Source: Candidatus Omnitrophota bacterium (lineage in GTDB: Bacteria; Omnitrophota; Gorgyraeia; Duberdicusellales; 4484-171). Taken from it: a stretch of DNA of 64,000 nt. The translations under genes and the position numbers were made by a program. The DNA is taken from contig JBDRAN010000035.1 in NCBI GenBank assembly GCA_043823745.1, positions 13,795-77,794 on the forward strand. The letters are read 5' to 3'. Numbering within the stretch: the stretch's first letter is position 1; every line of letters begins with the position of its first letter. Under the pieces are notes generated by a model, which did no database searches, was not told where the DNA came from, and saw nothing but the letters and a program-made list of their open reading frames with translations. Shown in pieces: positions 1,361 to 59,100 of the stretch.

Positions 1361-1377
1361 CTTTATCTGCCATCTTT

Positions 1378-1410: not shown

Positions 1411-1413
1411 TCT

Positions 1414-6399: not shown

Positions 6400-6494
6400 T
6401 CCTTGACCTCCTTAAAAATACAGAGAGCTCATATCGAGGAGCTCTCAATCGCTCATTATGCAATAAAACCTAAAGCCAAACGCGACAGGCAACC

Positions 6495-16794: not shown

Positions 16795-17106
16795 CTAGAC
16801 GACCTTCTCAAGCGGCTGTGCCATCTCCCTGTTAAACGCGATTCCGGCATGCCAACTCTCACCGATTTTTTTACACCAACATACTTTTCCGAGTGCTGTT
16901 ATTACATCGTACGCCCGGGCCTCGAGAGAAAGGCCGGCATACGAATCAACCGCCAAAGGCTCATTCGCGCTTACGCGCGCGCCATGAGCGCTGATATCAA
17001 GGCACTCGATTCTGCGGGAGAAATTGTCCTTTGAAAAAAATAATCCTTTCAAAGAACATGGAACGCGCGGCGATCGCCGCCTGCTACCATACAACTCTTC
17101 GCCCAT
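16795..17106 (-). CDS. PilZ-domain protein (putative c-di-GMP receptor)
   Basis: RRxxxR motif (RRRSPRV) followed by DISAHGARV...DSYAGLSL, i.e. the PilZ (D/N)xSxxG pattern. The ATG at 17104-17106 is preceded by a perfect AAGGAGG Shine-Dalgarno at 17111-17117. The track's TTG start at 17175 is unlikely. Confidence 0.65.
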   Translation of the reverse strand: MGEELYGSRRRSPRVPCSLKGLFFSKDNFSRRIECLDISAHGARVSANEPLAVDSYAGLSLEARAYDVITALGKVCWCKKIGESWHAGIAFNREMAQPLEKVV

Positions 17107-17110
17107 ACTT

Positions 17111-17117
17111 CCTCCTT
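17111..17117 (-). promoter_or_regulatory. Shine-Dalgarno AAGGAGG for the PilZ gene
   Basis: Reverse complement of CCTCCTT, 4 nt upstream of the ATG at 17104-17106. Confidence 0.6.
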
Positions 17118-17177
17118 TTTTATTGTAACATGTAAATAATTTAATAAAATATTTTTCGCATTGCGCCCTATACAATT

Positions 17178-35100: not shown

Positions 35101-38100
35101 ATAAAAACTTCTCCCTTGACAACATCGTGTACATAACGCCGGTCAACGGCATGAGTAACGGGAACTATTCGCACTCCTTTTACATAGGAAAGCACTTCGC
35201 TCAATTCAAAGTCACCCTTTTCTACTGCCTCCTTTCGTAAGTCCTCTAAAAGATAATCAGCTCTTTCCTGAGAGGACTTATCAAAGTAAGGCTTTCTATA
35301 TTGAGAAAATGAGTGTGCTAATCTTGCTATCCTCTCTGATTTCTGAAATAGTAGACTGGAAAACATAGAGAAATAATGCCCTGTGAGGTATATAATATTC
35401 AAGGAAAGGGGTAGAAAAAATAATATTGCCACCATAGTATTCTCTAAAGGTAATAAGGAAAAAACTATGTAATAAATAGATACAAATCCTATTATTTTAT
35501 AAAAAACGAGAAAGGGCTTATAAAAAATGCTGCGCGGCTGCTTCGTATATTCATATTTCCGGAAAACATCTTTCATCAAAATCAGGTGCCAATCAAAGAT
35601 CAGCGGCAGACGCAATACGGAAAGAAGCGTATAAAAATATACACCGAATGATGACCGCGCTCTTGATAGCTCCGTGGCGTTTAAATTAACAACCCTGCTC
35701 CCCTGCGGCCGATGCGCGCGGACGGAAGAAGGAGATGAGCTTCTCCGAAAAGCAGTTGACTGGCCAGCGCCAGTAGGTTGCTCTAAATAGTAAAACCACG
35801 TCTTTCCTTTTCCGGAAACTTGCAGAGATTGTAATGGATTAGGCCTTCGCCCCAATAAGCGCTCAAGACACTTTCTTACCATACCAGAACTTAAGCCACA
35901 CCTATCTACGATTTCGCTTACTGACATAGCTCTATCTGCTGTATCGGACAGCACGGCCATAATTTGTTGCTCGGTTGACTGTTTGTTTCTCGCCAACTGC
36001 TCCTGCCTCATTAATCTTGGTTTTCGAACAGCCAGAGGCGTTAAGCTTTCCGGAAACTTAGCTATTAAATCCAATGTTTTTAGCTCAGCTGCCCCAAGTT
36101 GCCCATCAATATATAAAACAGGAACTTTTTCTGTTTGGCCAAATAATTTTACTGTGGTTCTAAACATAGAGGCATCGAAATTTACAATCAATCCTGCTTT
36201 AATCCCAGAGTCAGCTTGCTCCAGCCTATTGCGCACACATAGATGAGCCTCAGCGATCCCAACCGCAGCGGCCACAATAAAAAGAGGTTGAGCAAAACCA
36301 GCGCGCCTAAACAGAGCTTTAAAATTATTTTTTATAGCCTTAATATGGGCAGGCTCTTCAGATCGCCCCCTTCTCTGGGCCTTTGCCGCCTTTAATTCCT
36401 GCAAGCCCCAGATAAATTGTTCCAACAATCTTCTCTGCATAATTCGCCAGGCTTCCTCTTTTAACATAAATGTACCCTGCCTGTGACAAGCTAATTTTAA
36501 TCGCACCCATTCTTTTAAATCATTATCTATAATTTCTATATTTTCCCCTACATTATCAGCGAATTGTCTAATTTGGGCGAGAGTCTTTGGCCCTTGAGCT
36601 AAGAACCGGCTGATTTTCTGCCAGCGGTCAGCTTTTCTGGAGAAAGCATTCATTTCTTTATCTGTTTTTTGAACAAGCCTGGCATCAACAATGAAAATAG
36701 CCTTGCCTTTTAAGCTTTGTAAGCGCTGTACAATCATGTTCCTGCTATAACCCACACCCGAGGAACCGGCGGGAACGGGGGAACCGGCAACTGCACCTTC
36801 AACATCAGAAATAAATCTCTTTATAGATTCAGCATCGTCAGCATAACTTTTACCATTAAAGTTCTCACGCACTATGCCAATAACATAACCATTTTCATTC
36901 ACAACTGGTGCGCCGCTAAAACCAGGAGGCACCATAGTATCAATTTCAATAACCCCGCTTCTGAATATTCTTTTAGCTTTTGCGAAAATTATCTCGTTAT
37001 TGCCATTGTTACCCTTGTCTTGCCTGCCTAGAATAAATACATCTACCCCTTGTTTTTGGTCTAATCTCGGAAAATTCCGACGCGAATATCGTATGAATTT
37101 GGCCAACGGCTCTATTTTCTTCTTTTTTAAACCTTTATTTGTTAACCTAACAAGACCCTTATCAGATATTAGCACTGGAGGCTTTTGCAATCTTCTTCTT
37201 GAGCACCTGGAATAAAACCGAGAGCTTGAAAGGGTACCAAAACTTCCTTCCAAGTTGATATAGTCCGGTTGATTGTCAAATGCGTGCCCTGCGGTAACAA
37301 CATAATAATTATCGCTGCATTCGTTCCAAATAATACCGGAACAGCTATAAAAATGGTGCCTATACCCTGCCCTTCGGCGTGGCTTTACCACAACAAATAA
37401 TCTAAATATTGCCTCTAACCTTTCACGCGGTATGTTTGGAAATCTAGCTAATATGAAAGACATCAATAACTGTTCATTGACTTGTCCCGCTGAGCTGGCC
37501 TTACCTTCTCCCTCTGCGGCCTGCCGCAAATCACCGGATTCAAGCCTCCCAGCGAGTTTTCTAAGGTGCGCGTCCCTTATTTCCCGGGCAGCCGGGATGA
37601 GTCGGCTTAGATCCTCCCTGTTTAAAGCTCGGGCAATCCAAGCTAAATCGTGCTGGCTTATGTCCCGGCTCGAGGCCGCTAAAATCAGGATTTCTTCTTT
37701 TCTCCGCAGGGCTTCCTGCAAGCCCTTCATTTCCTGGAAAGAAGCTCTGGCTTCGATACAATTATAGTCGGACCATTTTCTTTCACCGGGATTTTCGTAT
37801 CTGGCCACATGGCCTATCATTTCATGAAGCACTATATCGAATAAATATGCCGGCAAACGGAACTCATCTTCCGCAATCATTATGATGTAATTCATTACCC
37901 CGGAAACTTTGCAGCTAAGGATTATCGCCCCCTTCTGTTTTGAATAAGAACTATCATGTTTGGGTATATATCCCAAAGTTTCCAAAGCAGAAGCCAATGC
38001 CTGTCTATTTGCGGTGACCACGGTCTGAATCCTCCTCTTTTTAACAAGCGTAAGCAGCAAAGAGTAATCCTGGGGTGATATGGCTTTAAGGATTCCCATA

Positions 38101-41100
38101 CTTAAGGCGATACTCCGCATCTCCTTATCCGTTACCGGCCTTACCTGCCTGCGGACTTCCCTGGGCATTATTGACATTGACAGGTAACGCCCCCCTAATC
38201 TATCCAGCTTTGAGTCCAGAAAACGCTGAGAACCTGAAGACGACGAGCTGACGGAGGAAGATGTAACTCCTAACTGTTTTAAAATCTTCTGAGCCCCCTC
38301 ATCGCCTCTCTTTGCATCTTCTTGTAAAATTTTAATAGTTTTCTCACTCGCCTTCCTCAAATAAAATTCACTCTCAGCGGGTCGCAATAATCCTGTTTTT
38401 AACTCTTCGCGTCTAAGAATGATAATCATTTTTAAATTTGAACGGATAGCAATATTCTTATTACGTGTAATATTTATTACATAACGGAGAAGTTGCCGGC
38501 CGGCACCGATAAAGAAACTATTCTTATCTTGCTTGTTGCTGGGTCTCTTTTCCAACCAAACGAGCGCATCTGTTCCATCTTTTTGCTCTTCTATTACAAT
38601 AAAACTCTCTACGGATAGTTGAGGCTCATAGCTATTCTTGCTAAAAGAAAAATATATGCGCCTTAGCGGTCTTACTTGTTGAAAATATTGCTTATAGTCA
38701 GTCCGTCTTAAACAACGGGCAACATCAGCAAGCAGTAGCGAATTCTCTGGTCCAATATCACTGACTTGATATTCTGGCCAATATTTTTCAAACTCCGCGA
38801 TAACACCCTGTCGTTCTTTTTCAGAGAGCTCTGATACTTCCCGAACCGGTAAGATCTTTTGACCGGGAACGCCTCTAAACACAAGATTCTCCTTCACGAT
38901 AATGCCTCTCTTTAAAATCTGATTATCGTATATGTTTATTCTTTCAGCCGGCGAGCTGGCCACTTGTTTTTTAAAAACCTTCGCAATAGATTCTGCTTCG
39001 GCGCTTACCTCTTGCCAAGATGTATTGCTTGTAACCGGAATTAAGATAATAAAAATCGAAGGATGCCTGGCGCGAGTTAAAATATTAGAGACGAGTGGCG
39101 GTGATTTAATAAATGAAAAATCCCTATGCCTCCTTTTACCCCCGATAAATTCATCAGCAATGGTTTTATTTTCAGAAGAAAGATCATCATAATCTAAGTT
39201 AAGCTGAGCATATTTTTTCTCTCTAGCTTCAGCTATATCCTTAACGTTTGATTCATAACCAGGACTATAAAGCCTGTCGAAAAACGACATAATCCCTAAT
39301 AGATTCTTTATATTCGCCGAAGAATATGTAGTACGTATCCGCTTTCTAAAAAAGATTTTAACTGCCGCCCGCAAAGGTAATTCAATGTTTTTATCAATAT
39401 CCCCTTCATCTTGAAAAGTTAACGCCGGCGATACCCAAATAGGTTCTATATGCATAAGCGAATCTCTAGGTGCAGTCTCTTTCATCTTTCGTATATCGTC
39501 GTTCGTATATCGTTTATCGTTTGTCGGGGAGCCAGCAGCTTCTCTCCCACTTGTGACTTTGTGACCTGGTGACTGGTGACTTTGTGAAGCTGGCGAGCTG
39601 GCGGAACTTGATTGTTCAAAAATAGCAAGATGGTGTAGTTTAAGGTATAAATCTATTGTATCTTTTGTTAACTGTTGCGGTTTAATAAGGCCTTCGAGGC
39701 TAGTTTGTTCCAATAAATCCAGAAAATCCCAAATAAAAACATCCATTTTCTCTAAAAGAACTGTTGCGTTTCCCTGTTGGCCGAATCCTCCTTCTAAATA
39801 ATCACCCACTGCTCTTTGAAGTTGAGGAATATAGGCAGCTAACACTGCCGGACATCTTCCTGATAAAGTATTTCGAATTGATCCCGCCAACCTAACCACT
39901 ATTTTCTTTTGACTCGGAAAAAAATCACCAAGATCTCTTGCGGCTGCACGAATTAAGCTTTCTATTCCCCTTCGGATATCATCCTTTGCTAAAACCTCTT
40001 CTTCAGAAAAAACATCTGCTGACAGCATTTGAAGGCTTCGAGAATCATCCATTAATTCTAATACATCGATGATGCCTTTACCGGCAGCCATTCGTACGAG
40101 CGGATTATAATCGCTTTTTATTAAGGTTTCAGAAAGATTACCAAGAAGAAGATACCTAATTGCTGGTTGTTCGATAGCTGCTAAATGCTTAGCAACTAAC
40201 TCAATCAAGGCAAACTCTAATGACCACTCACCATGTTGCAGGGCTGCATTTAAAGTGCCTAGAAGAGGGTTGATAAATTCAGACTCAGAGGCCAAGCCCG
40301 TGCTGGAAATTCTGTATGCGGCAATTGCTCGAAATCTATAATCTAAATCAGGCGAAATCATTTTACCAATCAATTGCTCTAGCGGCGCAGGACTTGACAC
40401 TTTGCCATTTTCTTCAGTACCCCCTACATCAGGATAATCGAAGTTTACCTCACCGGCTTCTTCACAAAACCTTTTAACCTGCTCAATAGTGTGTATTATC
40501 TGACTCTCTCCGGGGCTTGAAGATCCCGCCGGCGAGTTAGCCCTACTCCGCCCTTGAGACTCACCAGTCTTTTCTCCTTCTGCACCGGAAGTAGAAACAG
40601 TTTGTACATAGCGTTTCAGAAACCTCCTCACAAGAAGAAGGCCTTTCTTATTGATACGATACACCGCTAAGTTACCCCTTTTCTGCATTGTAGTCACATA
40701 TCGCCTGCTGCGGGCAACGTTGATGAGGCTGCGAACATTCCAATGTCTACCTTTGAAGATGTCTGCATGGGCAATATCATCATAGGTGCATCTTTCCCGC
40801 AGCGATGAGTCAGCCGCAACACAAAAAACAAGTATGTGATAACCGGCAAAACCTCTCGGCTCTGGATAGTGTTCAGCACTGTAATAGTCCCATATTTTTG
40901 TCAAGTCGCCGCCAAACTCTTCACTTACTATTCTGTCTATTTCTTCCTTTAGTGTTTGAACATTCGGTGAACTTACCCGTCTCCCCGGTGAGCTGGCCTT
41001 ATCGTTGTGGACGGTATTACGCCGTACGCCCGGCGTGTTGAGTCGTGAGCCTTGCGAGGAAACCTTCCTGATCTTTGACAGTATTCTTCCTATAAGATCC

Positions 41101-44100
41101 GATTCCTCATCTAGATATGGAAATCCCTCTTCGCCTTCGAGAAGATCAAGCAGGTTAACCGGATTTTTATTTGGATCAATGCCGCGGGCTAGGTCAGGCC
41201 ATACATATACTTCCAGGTTAACAGGTTGATATACGTGTTCATTCTGCACGCTTTTTGTGTCGTAGGTAACAGTTACAATACCTTCTTGCATGACTATCAT
41301 ATCGGTGTCCCCCGTAGACGGATAAGGCCGCGTCCTTATTTTTAAAGCAAGGTTTCTCTTGGAGTTTATCGCCTGAACCCTGGCCGCAACAGCATGACTA
41401 AGCTCAACATCTCGACGCGTCAAAAGCATACCGCTAATATCTCTAATTCCCATCCTTAGCAGTTCATCAACGAGTCGTTCAAGTAATCCTATCTGGCTTG
41501 TGCTCATATGGAAAAATATAAGGACATCCTTCCCTTTTCTTATTCCTCTTAAGGCAACTCCTGAACAACCGCCCATGCGATACGCGAATAGCCGATATGG
41601 ATTTTGTTTCATTTCTGTTTCAATAATTGTTACCGATTGTGTTGACACCCAGTTTTTAGGCCTGTAGCCTTTTTCCACGTCGGCTCTATCGATTCTTGTT
41701 ATTCCTTGAGAGTTGCTGTGACGAGACAGTAATCGTATATCCTTTTCATTAAACGGATCATTGCACCACATACTATCGCCATCTGCCAATTCATTACCTA
41801 GCTTTTCGAAAGGCATCCGATTGAATATTCCAATGCTGGCCCGCAATACACGCTCTATTGCTCCACCCCTTTCCGTCGGCGAGCTGGCCGGCTTCTGGCC
41901 GCTGTTGGCGGGAGGACTTAAAGATTTGCGCCTACGACGAGGATAATTCTCACTTTTCAAATCTTCAACTCTATGCTTAATCGATACCTCACGAGGAGCA
42001 TTAAGTAATATCTTGGCTTCTGTACGGCCTGATTTCGCAGATCCAACTATTCCATTAAATTGGATGATAATTTGTGGCTTTGGCTGATGTTGTTCTGGCT
42101 GATCTGGACCTAAATCTAACCAATACAGAGTCTGATAAAATAAAGCATACGGCTCACTTTGACCATTAGGCCTCTCAATCTCAACAGTAACGTTTTGGTT
42201 TCTAATATTGTCAATATCGCCGGTTAAATGCCAATCTTTTACAGTAATCGTATAATGATTTTCTCTGCTCCCACAATAAACACACTCTCCGCCAATCAAT
42301 CCTGTAATATAATTACCCCTTAGACGCATACCTTGATCGTCAACTTTTATTAATTCTTTTATCTTGCCCGGCGAGCTGGCCCCTTCTTTCTCTAAAATAA
42401 ATCCGGCCTCTGCTATTTTTGCTTCTATATCAACTCCATCTGCATCAACTCCGTCTGCAAGGAGCGCTCGCGCAACTCGATTAGTCCAGGCAGCAGACTT
42501 CATGGGTTGGCCGTTTGCGTCTTTCAATCTTGACCGCAATTTTTTCAAAGCAATAGTCCTGCTGCCTGTTTCAGTCGCAATCTGACCGAGTTCTTCCAGC
42601 ACCCTTGCGGCAAAAGCATTGTGTCCAGGGCGAGCCTTGCGCACAGCCGGAGAAGCCTGATTGGTTTTCAGCCATGCACGAAAACTCTCCAAAGAATTCC
42701 AGATACGATACCCTTCTTCGGCGTATACCAAATCAAGCAACTCCTGAAGCGTCGGCTTGACGCCTTTGTGTGCCTTGGCATATGTGGCAGAAAGCCTGTC
42801 TAGCTGAGAAATCCGTTTCTGCTTATTAAATTCGCGTACGGGAAACTCGATCCCGTTTTGCTTGGCGATATGATAAAACTGATGAAAGGTTAAGCTGCCA
42901 TCGACTCTGGGGTCAGTTTTTCCCATCGCCACTATTTGCTTATGCACTACGTTAGCCAGGGGCCGCCTGCCATCAGTCAAGACCTGATCTTTAACCCCTA
43001 AGGCAAGCCAGCCTATGCCAAATTTATATACAGTTAATTTTGGATCGCCCTTCCTACCTACCATCATCCGACGTCTTTGCTCTTCATCGGCATCACAAAC
43101 ATGCCTCTCTCTCCGGGCAGCAACTGCACGGACGAGTTGGTCTATATCGGCTATGGGCGCAGGAAACTGAGAATCCGCAATATCAAAACGAGTATCCCTT
43201 TGTATATCAAAATCATGCCACCTGCCGTTAAAGAAAAGAGACGCGAATACATACTCAACCTCAGCAGGCATATTTCTAAGGACCTGCGGGGGGTAAATCG
43301 CTTTAAAGGCGTCTTTTCTAAGCATAACAAGTTTGTAGCCAGCCGGAATCTTTGCGGCCCGGGCCACGGCAACAAACAAATTGGCCGCATTAAAAGACAT
43401 GCCAACCTCTCTATGAAACGTCTCAGAAGCCGGAGTATCCCAGTAAGCGCCATAACCAATACTATATTTGATTTTTTTACTTACCCAGTTCCAGAAAAAA
43501 GCGGCCTGGCGCGCAGAATCGTCAGGATAGTTCTTTCTTACTTTATAGGCTTTTCGCCTAATCGCCGGATCATCCCGATCGCAAAGCTCGGTTTGAGCTA
43601 AAAACCTTTCTGGATTGTCGAGGCTGACTGCACCTTGATCTGCAGGCGAGCTGGCCCTCTTTGAGTCGTGAGTCGTGGGTCGTGCGTATTGCGATGAATT
43701 AACTTCTTCACTTGTGACTTTGTGACCTTGCCTGCCCTTCGAAGCCTTGGCGAAGTAGGGTGACTTGTGACCTTGTGAGGCCGGCGAGCTGGCCTGCTTT
43801 GTCTTTACAAGAATATTATCCTTATCGCCAAAACCTTCTGCGGCTACGAATCCGCGTTTTCGCAGCAGCGATTGTATTTCCAAAGTACATTCTCTCGTAA
43901 AGAAGAGAACTCTTCTAGTCATTCCCTCTAATTCCAGTATCATTTTTTCTTCAACGTTCAGATGGCTATAGCCACCATGGCTTCTGACTTTCCGTCCTAT
44001 TATATAATCTCCATAGTGCTCAAAAGCCACAAATCCTACTACTTGATCTCTGTATGCGGCCACCATAATCTGGCCATCTCCGTATGCTCTTGGATCAAGA

Positions 44101-47100
44101 TCCGTCAGAGAAAGCTTTCTGCCGCGCCTAGCAGACTCTGATCTAACCAATAGCTTTATAAAGTCCCTTCTGTCCCATCTGCGGTCTCCCTCGGCAATTA
44201 TACTCGTTCGTTCTATATCTTCCACATCATCTAACTCTAACGACACTCTGCACCGTCGAATAACAAGCTCTGGTTTGCTCTGTGGCGCCGACGAGCTAGC
44301 TGAAGAAGCCCGACCACAAGCCGCATTCACACGAGCTGCCGACGGCGTTATAGTCGCCTGAGCCAATATCTGGCTGGCCCAACTTGTAAAATCATCGTCT
44401 ATTTTTAGATCCTGAGCCGGTATGCCGCTCGGCGCAAAGGCATCACGGAGAGAATAACCCGGGCTCTCTTTAACAAAGATTATCCCAAGCATCGTTCTTA
44501 ATACTGCTGACATATAAATATCACTTTCAAACAAATCCGTCATCACCCTGGCATTATCAATACTGTTGTCGGGCTTAACCAAATAACCAAAATACTTTAG
44601 ATATCTTTGATAATCAGCATTTTGAGACTCTTTATCAACTCTACGGCAATACGCCTTAAAATCACTTATTTGTGACATCAAATAAAGTATTTGCACGGTA
44701 CTGGCTTCAATTTCAGCGGCCCACAGGGAAAACACCGTTCGTTTTAATTTATTTCGGTATTCACCGTCCAATGCGCCGTATGAAAAGCAGTAAGTCAATG
44801 GGTTGTCGTGCCGCATAATCTCTTCATTGAGTTGGCGATACTGCTCGAACAAACCCCGCTGACGCCGCAACAGATGTGTCGCTTCATGAAGCAAAACAGC
44901 CTCAAGGTCGATATCAGTAAATTCAGAAACTGTTTTACGATTTACCTTTAAAAATATATTCTTGAGAGTAAACGGTCCTGGTTTGACGGCAATGGCCAAA
45001 TAGCCTTTTACTGCCGGCTCGAGCTGAAGTGTTGGTATTACCTTACATACTTGACCCAGCTCTAACAGCTCTTGCTGTGAAAAGTGGTTTAATCTTTTGA
45101 GTGCGTCCATGTTAGCAACTAAACGCCCAGATGCAGCAGCTATCTCTTCTTTAATAACAGTAAGAGATTTGGATGCCGGCGAGCTACTGTGAGGCTGCCC
45201 TTTTGCAGGACTTGGCGCAGACGTTTCATCTGCAAGATAGGGTTGTATCATGCCTTCAGGCAAAAAGGTAGCAACTGAAGAGCTGGTATCTTCTTGGGGC
45301 ATATCCCCGGAAACATGTTTCTTTAAAAACCTGCACACTAACGCAAGTCCTTTATTATTAATGCGATATACAGCTGTTTTTCCGCGGCGCAGAGTCGTCA
45401 AGTAGCCCCGCGTACGAGCTGAGTTAATAAGGCTTTGTACGTTCCAATTCTTACCATAAAATACGGATGCTTGCGCGATATCGTTCCATGTGCATCCTTC
45501 CTGCAACGTTGGCTCGGTCGCCACGCTGAAGAGTAAAATATGATACCCACAAAGACCTGTTTCAACAGGATAATTTTGAGCGCTATAATATTTCCAAATT
45601 CTTCCTAAATCATTACCAAACGCTTCCAGCACTATTGTATCTATGGCGTGTTTAAGTGCCTTGTTTGTTCTTGCTGGAGCCGTTAATGATCGTTTCATTT
45701 TTTTATTGTCTGCCAGTGAGCTGGCCATCTTCGGGTCGTGATTCGTGAGTCGTGAGTCTTGAGTGATAGAATACTCATGTTCACTTGTGACTGGTGACTT
45801 GTGACTGGTGACTTGCTTTGCTGGTGAGCTGGCCCCTCTCTCTAAATGCTTGTTTTCTCCCAAACCGCAGCAGAGACTCAAGATAGCTTCCGCATCTATA
45901 TACGGCTGGATCATGAAAAGTACGGCCCCGACACAACCGGTTTTTTCACCCCACTCCACGCGCAGCGCTCCCCGATCATTAAACTGAGCCTTTTCTCCAG
46001 CAACCTTTATTTTCCTAACCCCCATATCTTTCATTTCGTAGATTACTTTCTTCCAGACCAGCTTAACATCTCTTAATCCAAGCACCGGTACTATCGCATG
46101 TTCGGGTAGAATAGGAACAGGACGACTATCGGTTCTTGCCGGGATTAATACTACTATTGCTTCGGTTTTAATTCTGCTCGGAATCTTTGACAACTCTGGC
46201 CCTCGTCCTTCACAATCAGCCAATACAAATACTACTCCTTTAGCCGACTTTAAAAACTCTACCATGTTATGAAAGTATGAGCTTGCGTTGTGAGCAAGTC
46301 CGCAGGGTACAAAAATAGTTTTCCCTCTCTTTTCATGGTGCCACCGCCCAACATAACCTCCCAATATATGTACTAATAAGGTGACCTCACCACCATTGCT
46401 CCTGATTGCTTCTTTAACCGTTTTTGAACAGCGACCTAAAGCATCGTCGTAGCGAATCACTCTTTTATAAATCTCCTCTTTTTCTCCGACCCTAGGTGAA
46501 TTCTGCTTGGCCTCTCCATAATACAAATTATTCCAAAGCGTAACCAACCCCCAGTTATATTGGGGTTGATCATCCGCCCTCGGCGAGCTGGCCCGTTCTT
46601 CGATCCTCGATTCTGGATGCTCGATGCTCGATAGGAGGGTAGGCATGGCTTTTATCCCCGCTGCGCACTCGGGCATGCGAAAAGTTACAAAATCCACAAT
46701 ATCTTTTTCAAGAGTTTCCCTGTCACCGATCCACCTCAATGATGCTAACCTTTCCAGGTACTTCCAGTAACTTCTTGAGTCGAACTGGCTGAGATGATTC
46801 ACCCTCCCTGAACGGAAGAATCTTCGTAATTCCGGCAATAAGTCATCGTTGTTTCTTACACAGCTCATATATAGAATAAGATCTCGCCCAACCTGCCGCG
46901 CTTCTTCTTTCTTCTCTTTTTCGGGTGTCCTAATTGTGTTATCATGGCCTAACTCATGGAAAAGACGCTCGGCCATAATCCAAGAAGTAGCTTTCCTATA
47001 TGAAGGGCTAGCATGACGGTCTATTAAAGTAGTAACGAAATTCCTATTAAATACGATGAATACCCTTCCTGTCGAGTCAATATGTTTTATGGAGTTAAAG

Positions 47101-50100
47101 GGAAGATTCTTAGCGACAAGGATTGGTATGGTCGTACGTTGTGGCACATTTTGCTTTAATATATTTACTAATATTTCGGCGGCTTCAGTCCCCTCAACCC
47201 TTCTTTCCAGCTCGTTTAAAGCGTCGTCAAGGAGATTCTGCAGTTTATTTCTACCGATTGTTGGCTTATTTATGCGCCGCTTTATCCTTTTCTCTCTGTC
47301 AGTTTCGAGTAAGACTGGACCGAGAATGCTGTCATATATTAACTTTTCAACCGACAGCTTTTTTATTCCAGGAGTTGTAAGCATAGCCTTGAAACCGTCC
47401 CCGGATAATAAAGCCTCCTGAGTCCCTGATCTATCGGCAGCCTCAAATAGTCGCCTTGTCCCTACAGGACTATTTATTAAACTGGCGCTTTCCAGTGCCG
47501 GCGAGCTGGCCTCGTCTTTATTGTGCGTATTGTCCCCTTCGGGGAGGCTCCGCCTGCCCTTCTGGGCGGCTCCGCGCCGTATTGCGTCAGAACCCGGTGA
47601 GCTTGCCTGAAAAGGTTCCGGGGATGAGGATTCACGCCTCTTTTGTATCAACCTGGAATATTCAGGATCGCGCGGCTTCATAAGCCTCTCGTGCCGACGC
47701 TGCATTACAGAAGAAGAAGATTGTTGTAAAACATTATCTTCCCTCTTCCCGGAAGCCAAATCGTAATCCTGCTGGCTCAGTTTCTCAAGGTGCGCCGTAA
47801 CTTTAACAATTTTTCTTGTTGAAGGTTCCCCTAAAGAGCTTGAGCTCACGTTACGTTTTGTCGGAGAAACAGTTGAACCGGAAGCACTACGAGTCGCACC
47901 GAGCACATGGCTACGTATCTTTCGTTTGACTAAAGCAAGATTCCTTGGGGTATTTTTCTCAAAATCATTCTTGGTAAAATAAAACGGCGGGTACCCGTTA
48001 TTTATCAAAAAGAAGTTCATTAAAAACCAGGCAAGTCTATGGTGCCCTTCGTTGAACGGCGGAATCCCATCCCAATAGCAAAATCCCTCTCCCGATAATA
48101 TCTCCTCATGAAACCGGAACTTATCCGTAGGATAAAGATATATTTCCCTTGCGAGTTCTACGACCCTGTCTATACCTTCTGCTTGCACCCGGGAATTAAC
48201 CATTTCAACCAGATACGGCAAAGGTTTAAATGGGTTCGATAGGGTGCGAATTCTTTTCTGGCGCGTTTCATTGAGATTAAGCTTCCTCTTCTGTTTGCCT
48301 GTCCACCCTGTGGCAACCTCTGGTTGTTCTTTTACTGTTCTCTTATCTCCCATCATCAGTTCATACAAAATAGCGATATTCCTATATGTTATCCTTTCTT
48401 GTTGCGTGACGACTCTATTAAAATAAGAAACTGCTTCAAGAAAATCATTAAGAAAATTTCCTTGCCGTCTCTCTCTAAGAGACGGTACAGATGCAAATAA
48501 CGCACGTATTCTTTCGGGATCGATTGTATGTACGACTCTCTTAATAGATGAGGAACCGGTCGTGCTTGAAGCGGTGCCCTCACCTATTATAGCCGGAGCA
48601 TTTTTATCACCAAAACCCACGTCCGCGGAAAATTTATATCCCAATGCCTTGGCCCGCTCGACTACCGAGCCCATACCAATACCGATAACGACTGATGAGC
48701 TTGCTGCCTGACCAGGAACGCTTGCCGTTGGCTCTGAGATAAGTTTTTCGATGAGCTCTTCGTGCTTTCTGATAATAGGCTCATGAGCAAAGCGCTCCAT
48801 GACAAACGGCCGCGCGGCGCGGCCCATGGCTCGGGCTCGCGCGGGGTTATCCAGAAGAAACCGTAACGCACGGGTAAGCGAATTAATATCAACGCGGCTA
48901 TGGAACTTATTCGTGCATTCGATAACATCAACGAGTATGCCGGTTTTACCAGGGATAAATACTTCGAGATTCCCGCCCCGATTCGTGGTAACGATCGGTT
49001 TTCCCATAGCATGAGCTTCAAGAATAACTCCGGAAATACCTTCGTTAAAGACCGTAGGGAATGCTACGATTGACGCTGCATCAATGTGATCTCTCATTTC
49101 CTCTCTGCTATGAACCGGGTTGAGTATCTTTACCACATCGTGCAAGCCATGGCGCTGCATATAGATTTGTATATTCTGCAGGTATCTTCGTTGCAGATGT
49201 TCGCCCAGAATAATCACCAAGAAACGGTAATTCATATCCTTGAGCCGGTGTGCGGCTTTAACCAGCTCGAAGATTCCTTTACTTGCCACGATACGGCTGG
49301 GAGAAAGAATAATCGGTTTTTGATCGCACCCAAGCTTTTTACGGATCACTCCAGCGCGGGCAGGATCAGAAGAAAAAATGTCCAGGTCACGAAGGCCCGG
49401 TATGTGTACGACATCACGAGCAAACTTTTTGCGTGCGTCCCGCGCACCCCGAGCCGATATGGTCACCAATTCGCTTGCTCTGCTGATCACTTCTTCGAGG
49501 TTTCGCTGACGGCTCGAGTCATCGGTAATCAATTCTCCTTCGTGCCACTGGACTAAAAGCGGTATGGCCCGCTGGGCTGCCATGCGGCTGGCTTCAACCG
49601 CTAAACTACTTTTGGGACTGTGAATACGGACCACATCGATTATCTCCCCCCTTTTCTCTCCCATCAATGCGGCAACACGGGCAAGAATATCTTTTTTAGT
49701 AGTTTCGCCGTATTGGTGGTATCGGTGATGAATAATCCGGGAGGATCCTACCTGCTCAACAAAACCGCGGTCGGATTGCTGGCGAGGGACTTCATAGAAG
49801 ACATGTGTGGTAAGATTCTTATGGCGTGATGATAAGGCGTGGTTAAGGGCCACCAGATGCAAGGCTTGACCAGTGGGACTGGCGTAATGATTGGTCATCA
49901 TCAGGATACGTTTCCCGGAAAGGCTCGATGAAAATGCTACCCTCGGCGGGCCGCGGCGACTAATTGCACCTGACAAAGCTTCTAATCGACTACGCGCACC
50001 AGGAAATGGGCGCCGCGCAAGAGATCGATGCAGAGCTACTTCTTGATATATTCTCTTTGCTCTGGGCAATGAAAGCATATATATATAGGAAAGCGGCGAC

Positions 50101-53100
50101 AGATGGAGTCTTTCGGGCGCGGCCTCAGGAATCCCGCGATGCGTATCAGGTACCGATGTCACAACGGCTGACTTGACTGAGGTTAGTGAACTGCTGCTAT
50201 TCTTTGTAGCTCTTGTTGGGCTGCGCCCCAGCGCGTCCCGTAGGGGACTGCGCCGCAATTCAGCCATTACGTCGTCAAATATACCCCTGAAGGCTGATAT
50301 AACAGGAACAATACACCGCTCTATCTCTGCTTGCGAAGGAGCTCTGTGATGGGAGAGACGACGCGCCCATCCCGAGAATTTACCTGAGAGCGTTTTTTCT
50401 ATTTCCGTAACAAAAAGGGTAGGTAAATATTCATCTAAAGCCTGCCTCAATACAATACCAACAACATCAGAGGACAGACGACGCTCAAGCTCTTGTCTAC
50501 GGGTAGCTTTAGCTTGCTGCAATTGCCTCTTATCAGCCAATTGCGCAGGCGCACTATTCGCAAGCCAAGCCTCTACTTTCCTGTCAAGGTAGTAGCCTCT
50601 AAAAAACGTGTCGCGGTCCGGCCTGGCGTAATTCTTAAGCGCCTCCATCATGAAAGCAATAATCGACTTTTCGATAAAAAATACATTGTCCGGTTTCCTG
50701 ATGTGGTGACAATTAAAGGTAGCTCCCCACCGCGCGATGAACGGTAGAATAGTTTTTATGACTTCTGACAATCTATTTTGAGTTTTCTCCTCAAACAGCC
50801 TCATCGCTCGACTATGCTGTCTATTTTTTGTAAATACAGCAAGCGCCTCTTGTTGTACGTCACTATAAAAAACCTGAATTGACCTCTCCAAAATGTTCAG
50901 GGACTCAGGGGAAAAATTTTTCCTAAGCACACCAAGTGATTCATTTACTCCAGAGCCAGCTACTCCACTTAATCGAGCCATTCGCTTGATGAGGGAACCG
51001 ATAATCTCTAATTCTTCAACAATCTCCTTGTGAGGCTTCCTCTGCGAAGCGGAACTAGAAGAATTGCAGTTAGACTTTGAATTGTGATTTTTCAAATCTA
51101 CCGATGAGCTACTGCGCGGATACCCTTTACCCATGCGCGGATGAGTTATCTGCAAGAGATTAGTATGCGCGACCCATTCGGCTCCTTGTGGTCTTTTCCC
51201 GATCGTTGTACGGCCATCCTCTGTGCTCACCCATACGGGAAATCGCACATCGGCGGCATCAGCCGACAGTTCGGCCTGGCGTGCGGAGGTGGCTTGATCT
51301 AATGCTTTGCGTTTAAAATCATCCCACCGGCCGGGGCTCCATATTTCAAGACGGTCGCCAACGCCGACAAACACTGCGATATCGGCCAGGCCAGCGAATT
51401 CCCGTAAAGCACGCGGTATATGTAATCGAGAATTCCTGTCTATCGCAGCCATGGGTATTCTGTCTTGTGGTTTTTTATCTCCGAAACAAAGATAGCCTTC
51501 ATCTCCTTTATATAGATAAAGCTTGGAAGAAGCCAAATCCTTCCGCCAGGCCGCGGGAATTAACAGCCGGCCTCGGTCGAGTGAGCGCGAATGCGTACCG
51601 ACAAAGATTCTTGAGGAAACCGATGAGCTGCCATAACGGGGTACAATACTGCTTGAAGCAATAAATTCTTCTGCCAGACCCTTAATATAGGAAGATGCTT
51701 CTTGGTCCTCGAACTCTTGAGGTGTTTCCCCAATCAGCGCATCTTGGTATCTTCGTGGATTGATTTGTAAAAACGGGATACCTTCACGAGCATGCGAAGT
51801 TACGTAATAGCGGTGAGCGGCTTGTTTACCATAAGGCACTACATAGAGACTCTCGGCTGCGGTTTTAAGCGCTGCCAATACGGTTCTTTCTTTTTCCGAA
51901 GAGGCACGAGTAGACATCGCCTCATGCAATATCCTTTGCGCGCTGTCAAGATAGAGGGCGCCGTCATCGGCAAGATCCCCAAAACGTATTGTACTCTTAC
52001 GCCTCAATAAAGCAGTCACCTCTTTAGAAGTAACAATTTCCGCCTGCTCGCCCAAATGTTTATTCATCATGAACGTAAGCGCATGCACAAGGCTATTACG
52101 CTGTTCAAATACCTTAAGCCGTTGTAGAAAATCTTGAACGTTGCCAAGCCCTGTCTGTTGAGCGAAAAAATCACCGATTAAGCCAAAAAAACCGAGTGAA
52201 GATGCGCGAGGTTGATACTGCGGGCTTGAACTGTCTGCTGCTTGCGGCGAGCTGGCCTGGTAAAGGCGTTTTGCGTCCGCGGGGCTTTGCACCTGTTGTG
52301 CCCGAAGGTTATTCAAAGGACTAGAACTCTTAAGAGAGTCCGCTATAAGTGTTTCTATAAAACCTCCCTCATTCTCTTCCGCTCCAATCATTCGCGCACG
52401 ACCGAATTGTTCATTCCTAAACGCAGATGTTGTGTCGTTAAAACCATAGTGAAGAAAACGTCTCATGCCGGCTTCTTTTGCAGCAGGAATGTACCGGTCA
52501 ACCTGATTATCAATAAACACCGGGTATTTTGGCTCGCCATACTGCTTTCTATATTTATCAAGAGCAATCTCAAATATTTTTTTCCCGTCCGATTTCACGG
52601 TTCCATGTTCACCGGTAATCACAATTAAGTCCGGATCGATAAGGCCCGGGTAACACCGATCAAATAGTTTCATCATCCACTTTCTGCCAGCCGCCTCAAA
52701 GTTCGATATAACTCCGAATCTTATTCCTCTCTCCGATTGAACTCTCAATAAATCATCGAGCCTTTCTTGAATCCATGGATTTGCGCTCATGGGGCCGAAA
52801 TAGGCCTCCTCAAACTCATCTTGAGTAACCGGCCGAACTGCACCGTAACCTAACAAATACCTACTGATAAGGTCAACCCAACGCTTAAACGTTTCTGGGT
52901 TGCGATGTAAATCATGCCGGGCAATTATCTCAGAACCTTCATCAACTTCTTCCGGCGGAATGATCAGTCGGTGTAAACCCTCTCTGAAACTCGGCTTTTT
53001 CTCCGTTTGCCACCCTTCACTATCGGTTAAACCTGAATATGTTCCTAATCTTCTGAGTGTTTCATCGAAGAAATCTTCAATCTGAGTGCCTAAAACCCGC

Positions 53101-56100
53101 CCATAGTCAAAAAATACAATGTTGGTTTGTCTACTCTGTTGCGGAGAACTGGCAGCGGCAGGATTATAAGGTATTTTAACCGCGACAAAAGGATTTTGGC
53201 CGGTGCTTTCGGAAGGCGAGCTGCCCCTTGTTCGTCGTGCGTATTGAGTATCGAGTATTGAGTTTGAATCCGACGAACTGGCGGCAGGATCGGAAAAAGG
53301 CCGCTGTCCCATTTTTTCTGTTCTGCCATTTAGCCCTAAGCCCCTGGCCGGCGACGAGGCGGAAATAATAATATTTGGCAACATTACAGTGACTGTAGTC
53401 CCCACATTTTCCGTGCTATCAATTGTTACTGTACCGGATAACCGACAAACTATAAGTCTAACCCAATTAAGCCCTACCCCGCCTCTATGACCAGGATAAA
53501 TAAAGCTTCTTTTAGCATTTTCGGCTCGATACCCGTTCATTTTCCGAACCAGTTCTAGCTCTGCTTGAGGAATACCAATACCTTGATCTCTCACTAGAAG
53601 AGTTAAATATTTACTTTTTGAACCATAATCAATATCAATTGCAATGACCGTCTCAGGATTATCTTTTTTACAGTATTTATAGGCATTTTGAAATAAGTGA
53701 TACAAAATACTTGTCACCTGTTTAAATAAAGCTTCATCTAAAATCTTATCTGCCAGGCCATCAGGAATGGAAATCATAACTCTAAACTGCTCTAAAACCC
53801 TTGCTGTTTTGATTACCTCATCCACGGTAACACTCATAGATAAAGAAACGTTTTCACCGCTTAAACCGGCTAAAATCATATTCCTTCTAGTCGGATCTTG
53901 AGGAATAAAATGCTCCACAATTACATGCGGAACAATCTGCTGCAGAGAGCGAACATCTCCTTTATAAAGCCCCACAAGTTCTCCTATACTGTAACATTTC
54001 TCACCCGGTGAGCTGGCTTGGGTTTCAATTGCTGTTTTACCACGAATATTTCTTAGGTTGTTCGAGGAATTTTTTTGGATAAACTGTCTTAAGATTGATT
54101 CCCTGGGAATTACGACATCAACGGGGGCGAGACGAACCGGTTTCAAAAGAGAAATCAACCTCCGCATAACCGTCAACATCTCCTCCTGTCTCACTTCTTT
54201 CAAGTCACTCTGCAATATACCCCAAACTTCTCTTTTGAGTATAGGCAATTCATAAGGCGCGTAGGCTTGAACGGTCACATCGGCATGTACCCACTGCGGA
54301 TAGAGGTCATCAAGCATCTGTCCGTGTTGTTTTAAAAAAATGGCAATTGTATCTTTTGGTTTTTGCTGTTCAGTGAGCCACTTGTCCAGAATCTCCCGGA
54401 GCAGGCGCGCATGAAGAGACGTAAAGGGATAGTTTCCTTTCAATTTTAAACTGGGCGCGGTATTGACAAAAACCTTAAACACAGGTACGCTTTTTGCGGA
54501 AAGCTCTTTCAGTAATCCAGGAGAGAACGCCTCGATACCTTCAACAATCAAGGTTTCATCGGCGGCAAGCCTTAAACTGCGCGGGTTGACTGAACCGTAA
54601 TAATACTGCTCGGCGCAATTTAAGTTAACCCTGGCACCGCCTAAGAGGCCGATAACGTCAGTGGGGGCATGATAATCGAGGTGCAAGACTTTGGCTTTTT
54701 CACCGTTCCTTAGGAGCTCGCGTTTCAGATTGTGGGAAAAAGCTGCTTTTCCTACGGCCAAAGGACCGGTTACCAGAACCACCCCCCGTTCGTGAAAGAA
54801 ATTCTTGGCAATCTGGACGGTAATTGAACGCAGGCCTTCCTCAGCGCGCTCCTCCACGGCCTTGATAAGCTTCTTTAACCGCCCCTCGTCAACAAAAGAA
54901 TTTAACTCTTCAAGCGTATCTGGAAAATGCAAGCTGAATTTAGCCACGTAGGGATGACGGCCGTTCTTATACCGTACTTTCAATCGGTTATCAGCGGCCA
55001 CACAGGCGTCGCTGACTTTCATCACAGCCAGGATCATTGCCGCGGCGCGCAGGTCCACATGGTAAGCTTTTGCCACTTTTATTACCTGCTCAAAAGCATT
55101 GACCATCCGCTCCTGGAGCATCTTATCCACTGCGATCAGGTGCCAATGCTCATCCTGTATATTCTGGGCCCATTCAAAATAAGATACTGTTACCCCACCG
55201 GAATTGGCTAAGATATCCGGCACAATGAGTATGCCTCGCTCAAGAAGAACCTCTTCAGCTTCGGGTGTAGTGGGGCCGTTTGCACCCTCAACTATCAAAC
55301 GGGCTTTAATCCTTTCGGCGTTGCCGGCATGAATTTGATTTTGGACTGCCGCCGGAATTAGGATATCAACCTTGGCTTCGAGAACTGCTCCGCCCGCTAC
55401 CCGGACAACATCAGGATAATCAAAATCCTTAAGCTTCCTACCTTGAGAAAGGTATGTCTCTAAAATCGCAAGGAGTCTATTGTTTATTCCTTTAGGAATA
55501 TGAATTCCTCCAGAATCATCGCTGATATAAAAAATCTTACGGCAGCCGCTTTTCTGTAAAATTTTAATCAGCTCAAAGCCAACATTGCCTGTGCCCTGAA
55601 TAGAGTAACTACATTTTCTAAAATCTTGAGGAAGTTTAAGCTTTTGAGCGTAACACCGCACAGATTCGCGGATAATAAAATAAAGCCCCTGGCCGGTTGC
55701 TTTGCCTCTTCCCTGCGAACCGCCGGCACTAAGAGGTTTACCGGTAATTACCGCCGGTTGCGGACCTTGAGCTTTAATTTTTTCATATTCAGATCTCATC
55801 CAAGCCATATATTGAGGGTCAACGCCGACATCAGGTGCCGGTATATCGCTGAATGGACCGATTGCCTCAGGATCTTTTTTGAGCAGCTGGCGCACATAAC
55901 CGCGGCAAAGTGTTTCCATTTCAGTCAGGGAAAGCGCCTGAGGATTAACGACAATGCCTCCCTTTGCCCCGCCAAAAGGAACGCCGACCACCGCTGTTTT
56001 CCAAGTCATATCCGTAGCCAAGGCCCGTATCATACCGCTGGTAACTGCCGGATGAAACCGAATTCCACCCTTACCTGCGCCCCGGGCCTTGTTATGGCAA

Positions 56101-59100
56101 ATACGGTAGCCTTTAAAATACATGGTCATTCCCTCTTGCTTAAAACAACCGGTATTGCTACGGGTCCTTGAGCCTTTATCCGTTTTAACCGGAATATCTA
56201 CCTCAACTACTTTGGCCGCATGAAACAATTTATTAAGAATCTTTCTGTCAAGCTTTATTCTTTGAGCAATGGCAAACAGATGTCGGGAGACATTTCTAAA
56301 ATAAGCATCGTCTAAATCGTCTTTGTCCCGCCGGCTCAACCTAAGGCCTGCTTTATGGGCTAAAGCAACAACCGCGGCTTTTTCCTCTGCCGGCGAACTG
56401 GCTGCCTTCCTGGAATGGAAAAAAACGGCGATTCCAGGCATAGTGCCTGCCCCATGAATATCCACGCCATCCAGAACCTGCATATTTTCCTTCATCAATC
56501 TGCCTTGAACGGGATTAATGAATCCCATTCTTTTTTCCCCATTATCTATAGTAGCTACGGCAATGCCCAAGTGTAAATGCGGCTGCACGTCGCTGGAATT
56601 ATGGAAGGCTATATGCCCCACGATAGTTTTACCGGCCTTTACCTCATCGCCCACTCGTAAATTTCCCGGAGCAATATGCCCATAAAATATATCCGCCTTC
56701 TGCTGATAATCAACTACCACTTGCTCATTGCCAACATAAACAACACTGCCGTCGCAAACCGCTCTCACGGGCGTACCTACAGGAATCTTTTTTGCGGTAT
56801 AACGCCGGCTGCCCTTGCTATCAACCATGTAATATACCCAATCCAATCCGGTATGTGGCTGAACCCGGGAGGCAAAACCATGAAGATAATCCCAGGTCTG
56901 CGTGTGTCCGAAGAGGCTTCCCTGAGGAAAAAACCATCCTATGCAGTCATCAGGCACATCCACCCTGTCAAATGGAGAATGAATAATTATATCCCCGGGA
57001 GAACTGATCACCGAGGAAGAACCTCCACCTGATTCCCCTATCTTTATCGCTCTTTTATACAAATGACGACTACCCCGGCCTTTCAATCCCAACACACGGG
57101 TAGGAGTACTCGTTCCCGACCGGTTCCACGCTTGGGTAGTCTGCAACCCCAATTCATAATCCGGGCTGATCCAAACCCTGTTACCTGAGGCAGCGTCGAT
57201 CTGCAAGCTCCTGCAAGAGATATTTCCTCCTGTACAATAATCACAGCGTACTCCTTCATTCTGAAGAGAGGAACTTACGTTTCGAGGCATATTCTTATAT
57301 GCCTTATAATACTGAATACCGACGCGGACATCGTCCTGGCACAGTTCTACGTCAAATTTTAATTTATCCCTGAAAAATTCACCGTACCCTTGAGTATCGG
57401 AACATAACCAATACGTAACAAGCTGCTCTACGCCTATATTTTCTAAATATCTGACAAGAACGGAATACCAGGCTGTCCCGGTTTTGACTTCTTTATTGCC
57501 GCGGACGCTTTTATCTAACGCTAACCTGAAATAAGCGCTCTTTTTGTAAACACAGATAGAAAGATACGCGAGCTCATTCTGTTTGTAACGCAAACTAAAC
57601 GTAAGATAGTCATCTATAAATTCATCTAAACCAAACCACATTGCCTGCCAGTCTTCCAGTTCTAACCGGTGCCCCGGAGAAACCACAACGGTGAGTTTAT
57701 TTTCCGATTCGGGAAGACGTTTTGTTATTTCATCAACGGGGAATAACAACGCAGGGTTTTGTTTTATCTTCTCAAGAGACTCCGCGGAAAATCTATATAC
57801 ATGCTTGCTGGACACTGACGAGCTGGCTGGAGGTGAACGCCCCGGCCTGCTTTTCCAAGACAATAAATCAATCATATCGTTGGTGTCCTGAACAAAAATT
57901 ACCTTTACCGGCGAACTAGTACACTCTGCGTCTAAACTTGAAACCTGATTAATTCCGTTTATAAAATCATCCGTGCTCATCCAGTAATAGAGTTTTATCC
58001 TTACATATTTATTTTCAGTATTTTCCTGTCCCTTCCGCGTTCCGTTCAGATACACCGCCACTTCATAATCCCTAAACCCTCTTCTCAAAGCATCCTCTTG
58101 CTCTAATGTCCGGCCTTCCCCGCTCTTAACCAAAGCAATAACATCATTGATGGGGTATTTATCTCCGGAGGGAAAATGGAATACCTTATCGGCAATAATG
58201 TGATATGAAACACTTGTGTGGTCTCTCTTCTGCCAGTCGAGGATCGAGTGAAACGCGCGGCGCAGGCAAAATCCCGCATCATAATAACTACCGCAGAAAA
58301 CCACATTGCAATCCCTCTCTTTAGAACGCACCGGCCAACGGATAAATGCGCTCCTCTCGATTTCCCCGGCCGCGGAAGGAATAGCGACAGGCTTTAGTTT
58401 CTCTGCCTGTTCGAAATCTAAGGGATACATTAAAATGAGCTTCTGTCCGAAGATAACGCCTCTTTTCTCTAAAGCATTAAGAAGCCAATCATAATCCCGG
58501 TGTTGATGAGCCTCAACGCCCACCGTGAATCGTGAGTCAAGAACCACTCTACTCTCACCGGAGGCGGCAAGCTTACGTGTCACTGACGAACTGACTCCAG
58601 ACGCATCATGTGCGCCCTGCTGAGCCATGAACTTATCGAAATATGCTGCTAGCGTTTCGTGCGTCCGGGCTGCTGGAATATCGGTATCCCGAAAACCTGC
58701 GGAGCTTGCGACAGCGTACAACGGCTCTCGGGCATATTCAGGCTCGCGCCAGAAATAATCTGAAGTTACCGAGGGTTCGGCTTGGCGCCAGGCAATGAGG
58801 AGCGCCCCTCCCTGGAATTGCGAGAATGGATAGCCGACAGGAATTTTTTTACGTGCAACTACGGTAAATCCTTTGTTCTTGAGCTCGCGTTTTATTTCTT
58901 TATCTTTTCCGTTTGCAATGTCTTTTGGTTTGACAGAAACAAGCAGTAAGCCTTCATGCGCGAGAACGTTCACAGCTTGCATAAGCACTTCTGTGTCAAC
59001 CGCGCCATGAAGAATGATGATATCGCATGATGCCGGAAGATGTTTATTTTTCCCTGATACCCACCTAAGCATAATGCTCCTTGTTTCTTCACCGACCTCA

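Follow-up and report, generated by a model that had tools for sequence, protein, structure and literature searches.

Bacteria of the phylum Omnitrophota encode a described class of giant proteins for which self-cleavage has been proposed, with cleavage points whose obscurity is stated to block further analysis (10.1101/2023.11.21.568195). The published debate concerns whether these giants are extracellular wall-degrading weapons or cytoplasm-facing arrays, and whether or not they are cut into pieces. In a catalogue of 916 such proteins, those with transmembrane (TM) segments only, which face the cytoplasm, form the commonest class (46%); another 39% combine a signal peptide with TM segments, and one "metabolic" giant of 147 kAA (thousand amino acids) is predicted to be extracellular (10.64898/2026.06.07.730766). 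In V. archaeovorus, attachment is accompanied by up-regulation of the giant protein. Here we analyze a 64,000-nucleotide (nt) stretch of DNA (the window) from a Candidatus Omnitrophota bacterium (GenBank assembly GCA_043823745.1, contig JBDRAN010000035.1, positions 13,795 to 77,794), which carries one minus-strand open reading frame (ORF) for a protein of this kind. A sequence-only reading of the window had seen in this frame a fused set of cell-wall- and protein-degrading enzymes with an envelope-attacking or envelope-remodelling role. The frame and its M23, S1 and GT4 modules stand, but the lytic interpretation is over-read, and the set was selectively picked. By its domain content, the giant protein fits the published "multi-enzyme" class of Omnitrophota giants, of which it is a new example. 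The reading that we lean towards, at slightly less than an even chance, is that of a membrane-tethered, cytoplasm-facing mosaic polyprotein that would be cut at its junctions by one or more embedded proteases, the enzyme modules being variable cargo.

The class in question, class 1 or "multi-enzyme metabolic clusters" (Nielsen & Lui 2026, 10.64898/2026.06.07.730766), comprises Omnitrophota proteins of at least 10,000 amino acids (aa) with many Pfam families and none dominant, and the present protein has each of these properties. It further resembles Omnitrophota giants in its content of group 1 glycosyltransferase (GT), HATPase_c, methyltransferase, receiver and peptidase domains, in having few TM helices, and in being without close homologues, as in the 80% singleton clusters reported for these giants. 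Proteins of the Archaeovorin type (West-Roberts 2023, 10.1101/2023.11.21.568195) join a SecA_DEAD-like domain and numerous TM segments to GT, methyltransferase, glycoside hydrolase (GH), peptidase and NUDIX domains. The chain described here has the GT, a weak methyltransferase match and the peptidases, with about eight predicted TM segments; in the 17,320 aa visible of this 5′-incomplete gene, no SecA_DEAD, C39, NUDIX or GH module was found at E ≤ 0.01, and S8 was likewise not found. Its flanks are housekeeping genes, in contrast to the type II secretion system (T2SS), pilus and GH genes that flank published Omnitrophota giants. The main text of neither preprint mentions M23, S1, glutamate dehydrogenase (GDH) or histidine decarboxylase (HDC) modules.

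Extent and enzyme content of the giant ORF

The claim that all modules lie in one frame and one polypeptide is borne out: no stop interrupts the minus-strand frame from 17178 to the window end (17178..64000; 15,593 codons listed, 46.8 kb), where it is still open. Contig JAHJZK010000305.1 (L085), from the NCBI metagenome-assembled genome (MAG) GCA_018827245.1, is 100% identical to the window over an overlap of 2,415 nt, and its positions 1-5142 lengthen the ORF upstream by 1,727 codons with the start codon still not reached. Window and extension together thus encode 17,320 aa or more of a protein whose N terminus is still missing. The extension contains a block of six TM segments, a response-regulator receiver domain (REC; Pfam E = 1.1e-11) and one further copy of a tetrapeptide, ASSP, that recurs throughout the chain. 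The NCBI MAG is broken into fragments at the giant gene, which could be taken to mean that the gene is not real, either because the assembly is chimeric or because the frame, though open, is non-coding; however, three fragments in GCA_018827245.1, assembled independently, are each 100% identical to the window, and 46.8 kb pass without a stop in a frame that more than 12 independent hidden Markov model (HMM) matches share. An artefact is effectively refuted already, and its remaining probability is negligible. In a full HMMER search with aa 13083-13549, two of the six proteins matched are fragments of the same giant protein (GCA_018827245.1).

The ORF was cut into 1,000-aa pieces and scanned against Pfam and NCBIfam, which returned significant M23, S1 and GT4 matches where the sequence-only reading had placed them (56550-56870, 36750-37300 and 48880-49920, respectively). 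All features of the chain given here and below lie on the minus strand. The M23 metallopeptidase module (aa 2364-2475, 56535..56870) scores 39.5 bits with PF01551, for which the gathering threshold is 28.7 (E = 6.7e-10; aa 2392-2467, nt 56559-56786), and keeps the HxxxD, catalytic His and HxH motifs, seen as PHTGLD (56841-56858), YGHI and PHLHLG (56565-56582). In solved M23 enzymes HxxxD stands 16 residues closer to the GTPV strand; here the motif is followed by an insert of 16 aa. When the insert is deleted, HxxxD aligns with that of 2hsi, lysostaphin and zoocin A, the Protein Data Bank (PDB) yields 21 M23 matches instead of 9, and the lowest E value falls from 3e-5 to 1e-6. The three motifs are thus common to this module and to lysostaphin/LytM-type endopeptidases (PDB E values down to 1e-6 with the insert removed), from which it differs in the insert, in lacking a signal peptide or cell-wall-targeting domain, and in lying within a predicted cytoplasmic stretch.

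The trypsin-like S1 module is a chymotrypsin-fold serine peptidase (Trypsin_2, clan PA; aa 8873-9029, 36873..37343) that matches PF13365 above the gathering threshold (E = 2.1e-8, 35.4 bits against 27.6), with triad candidates H8892, D8933 and S9015 in the strings TAGH, SDKGLVRL and GFSGAP. GFSGAP aligns with GNSGSP of the Spl proteases, and TAGH and DKGLVRL stand, as judged by eye, at the usual motif positions, D8933 being the putative Asp. The GT4 module is a GT-B glycosyltransferase: PF00534 (Glycos_transf_1) matches at E = 2.7e-23 (82.8 bits), NCBIfam GT4 models span aa 4690-5075 (48735..49892) and so give full GT-B coverage with both Rossmann halves, and the EX7E motif is kept (EGISGVILE, 49017-49043). 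A transglutaminase-like domain with Ser in place of Cys, claimed at 43150-43450, was recovered as a PF01841 match (E = 3.3e-8, 34.2 bits against 23; aa 6807-6918, 43206..43541). Alignment of its GMSFNA (43386-43403) with GVCRDFA of 3isr puts Ser at the transglutaminase Cys, the His is probably replaced by Tyr (by eye) and the Asp is retained; the Cys-His-Asp triad is incomplete. The accompanying suggestion that several modules are pseudo-enzymes holds for this module and for the first of two HDC copies, which has lost its pyridoxal phosphate (PLP) lysine. The catalytic motifs of M23, S1 and GT4 are kept, as are those of GDH and of the other HDC copy.

About 16 modules can be detected by HMM, all unrelated enzymes or regulators, and two of them are of lytic type. 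Upstream of M23, aa 571-813 (61521..62249) form a Rossmann module with similarity to shikimate dehydrogenase (NCBIfam E = 2.5e-10, which is under the family cut-offs; Pfam Shikimate_DH E = 2.7e-4). Downstream follow a full-length GDH (aa 2559-2986, 55002..56285; ELFV_dehydrog E = 2.6e-65, NCBIfam GdhA 396 bits, with the GGAKGG lysine motif), a GHKL ATPase of the histidine-kinase type (HATPase_c in Pfam and NCBIfam; aa 3405-3528, 53376..53747) and an MraZ-like module (aa 4168-4230, 51270..51458; Pfam E = 8.5e-15). The two HDC copies stand side by side: the first, HDC-like only (aa 11323-11659, 28983..29993), reads LPLGS where the PLP lysine motif SGHK is expected, and the second (aa 11690-12064, 27768..28892) keeps SGHK and scores 378 bits with NCBIfam NF002748 against an equivalog cut-off of 305. 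Weaker HMM matches in the chain are to HAD, P-loop kinase, methyltransferase, low-molecular-weight protein tyrosine phosphatase (LMW-PTP) and winged helix-turn-helix (wHTH) families. Two internal duplications were also observed, one between aa 9061-9413 and aa 13189-13549 (35721-36779 and 23313-24392; about 70% identity) and one between aa 6066-6273 and aa 7635-7828 (45141-45764 and 40476-41057; 43% identity). No peptidoglycan-binding, adhesion, carbohydrate-binding or GH module and no signal peptide was found in the visible chain of at least 17,320 aa. What stands of the claimed lytic toolkit is that M23, S1, GT4 and a Cys-to-Ser transglutaminase are fused in one chain, in a phylum with reported predatory and epibiotic giants. 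As a coherent envelope-attacking kit it is not supported: the lytic modules are two of about 16, GT4 is a synthase, and the rest are cofactor-dependent enzymes of cytoplasmic type and regulators (GDH, HDC, GHKL ATPase, Rossmann, MraZ, REC).

Comparison with relatives separates a conserved part of the chain from its enzymes. A 387-aa module specific to giant proteins is present twice, its first copy straddling the window end (aa -298 to 109; 63633-63959 plus 298 aa upstream in L085) and its second lying at aa 12782-13254 (24198..25616). Fragments of giant proteins in no fewer than three other assemblies contain it at 53-56% identity, with invariant strings PSHFL.YG, DQM..E and ARQKML. Neither Pfam nor the PDB has a match to it, and a profile search with its alignment found nothing in a word-indexed protein database or in the PDB. 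The other giants that contain it carry GH130, methyltransferase, LMW-PTP, HTH and protein kinase, and the few further modules common to relatives occur in a different order. The genomic site upstream of PilZ/OppB (window 16795-17178) likewise differs in each relative (loci L082, L083 and L084): L083, whose OppB and PilZ are 86% and 76% identical to those of the window, has an unrelated 802-aa ORF in place of the giant gene, the complete genome CP070684.1 has an unrelated 1,759-aa ORF, and the closest MAG has OppA/SecG/TIM/PGK/GAPDH. A search of 5.8 billion proteins at E ≤ 1e-5 yielded no homologue of aa 5060-6800, nor did the GTDB genome contigs. It is because the locus differs in relatives and scaffold-sharing giants carry different enzymes that we place the protein in the multi-enzyme class. 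Since giants with the same scaffold module carry other enzymes, the enzyme set is, to judge from these comparisons, variable, lineage-specific cargo on a conserved scaffold and not a dedicated or conserved lytic kit.

Predicted membrane topology

Convincing hydrophobic segments are found in only two places: residues 597-781 of the extension, which form the 6-TM block, and a predicted TM hairpin at aa 9484-9526 (35382..35510), which is the sole convincing TM feature in the window. The predicted inside loops and flanks of the 6-TM block contain 17 Lys and Arg residues compared with 2 outside, and the flanks of the hairpin are also on the positive side. REC follows directly after the 6-TM block, and no TM segment or signal lies between REC and M23. 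Because hydrophobicity and the positive-inside rule put the modules on the side of the receiver domain, all large modules, M23 and S1 included, are predicted, if crudely, to face the cytoplasm. Among other candidate TM helices, aa 11513-11531 was ruled out because its counterpart in the second HDC copy is the SGHKF core, and the hydrophobic stretches at 1658, 9224 and 786 were discounted because they are weak or belong to soluble domains.

The predicted topology bears directly on the view, taken by the sequence-only reading and by West-Roberts, that such a chain is an exported or surface-displayed lytic, envelope-remodelling toolkit directed at host or prey, in which M23 would cut peptidoglycan cross-links and S1 surface proteins. 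Both peptidases have intact catalytic motifs, the phylum has predatory and epibiotic members, and the V. archaeovorus giant responds to attachment. The N terminus is missing here, and among catalogued giants 39% have a signal peptide with TM segments and the 147-kAA "metabolic" one is predicted to be extracellular. However, GDH, HDC, the GHKL ATPases, REC and GT4 depend on cofactors of the cytoplasm, no TM segment stands between them and M23, the positive-inside rule places these stretches inside, and related giants are without the set. The chain, only two of whose roughly 16 modules are lytic, offers no peptidoglycan-binding, adhesin or GH module, and its flanks no T2SS, pilus or GH genes. 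We consider an exported lytic toolkit unlikely, and the presence of intact M23 and S1 in the same apparently cytoplasm-facing chain as GDH and HDC counsels caution before a "lytic toolkit" is read from chosen domains.

In the membrane-tethered polyprotein that we prefer, the chain would be anchored in the inner membrane by the 6-TM block and the TM hairpin, with the large modules in the cytoplasm. The S1 protease, possibly together with the HExxH/HExxxH modules described below, would most likely cleave the chain itself at its junctions and not prey protein, and M23 and GT4 would have to be released or transferred before they could act on polymers of the envelope.

The ASSP junction

The modules are joined by Ser/Pro-rich linkers that carry the recurrent tetrapeptide ASSP. 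The chain contains 32 copies of it against 0.36 expected, and 39 copies of [AV]SSP, none of which falls inside HMM-covered residues (2,897 residues covered; p about 3e-4). One ASSP lies between M23 and GDH, two (aa 3315 and 3534) bracket the HATPase_c module, and two stand ahead of the transglutaminase-like module. The codons are almost invariably GCC AGC TCG CCG, which is GCCAGCTCGCCG, and this 12-mer is present in 26 in-frame copies at no more than one mismatch, 13 of them exact, between 19968 and 61178, all between HMM-defined modules. Examples begin at 23109 (23109-23120), 23175, 31545, 32487, 33801, 34536 and 38949, and further at 41877, 42369, 43782 (43782-43793), 46581, 47499 and 52245 (52245-52256). 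All copies are confined to the coding strand of the giant ORF, where 0.25 would be expected per window. The 8-mer GCCAGCTC occurs 31 times against 0.36 expected, 30 of the 31 copies being in frame, with zero copies on the opposite strand and zero in the 17 kb of flanking genes. From the codon usage of this gene, precisely these four codons would be predicted at 0.3% of ASSP sites, and conservation around the 12-mer extends no farther than about 2 nt. The choice of codons is not due to a general dicodon preference, since outside the motif AGC-TCG accounts for just 3.4% of Ser-Ser pairs. The 12-mer was also rejected as a Chi-like or restriction-modification motif, the opposite strand and the 17 kb of flanking genes being free of copies.

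Related elements recur in other giants. In the present protein, DNGGRASSP and DNDGGRASSP join two motif halves; the giant of GCA_028715335.1 has SLDNGG eight times with varied codons, ASSS and FDNGGNASSS are found in L087, which contains GCCAGCTC five times in frame, and SSPA motifs in the 1,759-aa ORF of CP070684.1. Metagenome contigs contain no exact copy of a 25-nt linker sequence. The ASSP/GCCAGCTCGCCG junction is mentioned in the main text of neither preprint; the word "linker" appears in neither, and the passages containing "cleav" name no cleavage points.

The ASSP junctions are candidate processing or recombination seams. That the in-frame GCCAGCTCGCCG and its relatives (DNGG-x-ASS[P/S]) constitute a functional junction code, marking either cleavage points of the giant protein or a seam at the nucleic-acid level (recombination or transcript processing), is a tentative proposal to which we give rather less credence than to the polyprotein as a whole. 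Within it, the nucleic-acid seam is favored because wobble positions, strand and frame are conserved, and the nucleotide-level conservation indicates a DNA or RNA role, for example as in-frame recombination seams, at least as much as a protease site. If the seam is real, modules could be gained, lost and reshuffled without a frame break, and giant genes would be in-frame cassette arrays. The junction supplies concrete candidate positions for processing or recombination and, with cleavage points unknown in published work, is the part of this locus most deserving of attention.

The junction also bears on whether the chain is processed at all. As an unprocessed, membrane-anchored cytoplasmic scaffold, it would hold modules that act in cis, with ASSP as a flexible spacer and M23 and S1 engaged in regulatory or housekeeping proteolysis. 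A TM-only, cytoplasm-facing architecture is the commonest in the catalogue, and REC, the histidine-kinase ATPase, MraZ and HTH suggest signalling; however, a plain spacer needs no fixed tetrapeptide, still less fixed codons, and no metabolic logic ties GDH, HDC, GT4 and M23 together. We judge such a scaffold to be about as improbable as the exported toolkit. Processing of modular chains is familiar elsewhere: MARTX toxins and viral polyproteins with chymotrypsin-fold proteases are module arrays with linkers, in which an internal protease cuts recurring short sites. The giant protein resembles them in its array of modules, the linkers between these and the embedded protease, its cleavage being proposed only; it differs in that neither RTX repeats nor a CPD domain nor a secretion signal was found and in that its junction is conserved at the nucleotide level.

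Several points weigh against the processed, cytoplasm-facing polyprotein. Its topology is drawn solely from hydrophobicity and the positive-inside rule; the missing true N terminus could hold a signal peptide, and a weak hydrophobic segment at aa 8678-8696 could put the S1 module in the periplasm. M23, intact yet facing the cytoplasm, would have no obvious substrate there. The cleavage itself is hypothetical, the residue that precedes ASSP is variable (R, G, Q, K, S and others) and therefore provides no simple P1 rule for the S1 protease, and the nucleotide-level conservation of the junction is unexplained by a purely proteolytic role.

Some of the linker DNA has a distinctive form. Linker elements of 80-150 nt with a 12-mer copy at each end (23107-23186, 27115-27194, 34318-34547, 39523-39602 and 43642-43795) consist internally of microrepeats of 7-9 nt (coding strand: GTCACAAG, CACGAC and CCAATAC); the encoded peptide is ASSPASQGHKVTSEE..SQY..THD.KRASSP. 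A 21-nt inverted repeat with 90% complementarity and a 21-nt loop (23178-23240) overlaps one junction 12-mer.

Motif-level assignments and flanking genes

The sequence-only reading had also reported three HExxH motifs and a degenerate Fic domain. The HExxH strings HELGH (46944..46958) and LLHEATHLL (44874..44888) are real, but the third is HEMIGH (37809..37826), that is HExxxH. In the whole ORF, HExxH occurs 3 times against 0.49 expected. Zincin and metallopeptidase HMMs gave no significant match to the HExxH/HExxxH regions; the best, SprT-like at E = 0.16, is the sole hint for LLHEATHLL, HELGH has no family support, and HEMIGH is a string only. For the putative Fic domain (47985-48070), the motif resemblance PPFNEGHHRLAW...NNGYPP stands, but relative to the Fic consensus HPFx[D/E]GN[G/K]R the string PPFNEGHHRLAW (48027..48062) has lost the catalytic His, the Asn and the Gly; Fic/DOC (PF02661) has no Pfam match at E ≤ 1, and a PDB phmmer search reached only E = 0.056-0.8 to IbpA/FICD. 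Single-sequence AlphaFold (AF2) models were too poor for fold comparison, with a predicted local distance difference test (pLDDT) score of 42 for the Fic-like module and 34 for the HEATH module. Both the Fic and the HExxH assignments are motif-level guesses.

These assignments matter most for the idea of an effector array in the style of MARTX or polyvalent proteins, in which the chain or its pieces would be moved into a host cell, which supplies cofactors, and would be self-processed there. Effector-type domains (Fic-like, transglutaminase-like, GT, peptidases, LMW-PTP-like) are indeed mixed here with embedded proteases. Polyvalent proteins have embedded, autoprocessing HEXXH/HEXXXH metallopeptidases as their hub and are proposed to be cut by them into units (Iyer et al. 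2017, PMC5512222), and the giant protein shares with these the combination of many unrelated enzymatic domains and embedded peptidases in one polypeptide. Polyvalent proteins, however, have 2-15 domains and reside on injecting mobile elements, whereas the giant protein is chromosomal, about ten times longer and predicted to be membrane-tethered, and its HExxH strings, unlike the metallopeptidases of polyvalent proteins, have no family support. To judge from its downstream side, where 17 kb of housekeeping genes show synteny with other Omnitrophota chromosomes, the gene belongs to the chromosome and not to a phage or a conjugative element. No translocation module, RTX or type I or type VI secretion system (T1SS/T6SS) signal was detected, and neither Fic nor the zincins have statistical support. 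An effector array seems to us distinctly less probable than either the exported toolkit or the unprocessed scaffold.

A PilZ-domain gene lies directly downstream of the giant ORF (16795..17106, minus strand; 76% identity to its counterpart in L083), and the housekeeping block continues with OppBCDF, LysRS, LolCDE-like, IlvE, McsB and ClpC; no T2SS, pilus or GH genes are among the flanking genes of these 17 kb. An OppB protein 100% identical to that of the window is annotated as Candidatus Omnitrophota, and the ClpC of the window is 80% identical to its counterpart in an Omnitrophota MAG. LysRS gave no match by exact look-up, for which we guess that its TTG start call is the reason. Rfam detected no RNA family in the window. 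Upstream of OppB, the window contains no ORF of at least 200 aa besides the giant gene and hence no OppA-sized substrate-binding gene. ClpC and the arginine kinase McsB adjoin each other (window 3958-7553), and the syntenic relatives have a small UVR-motif gene (McsA-like) between IlvE and McsB.

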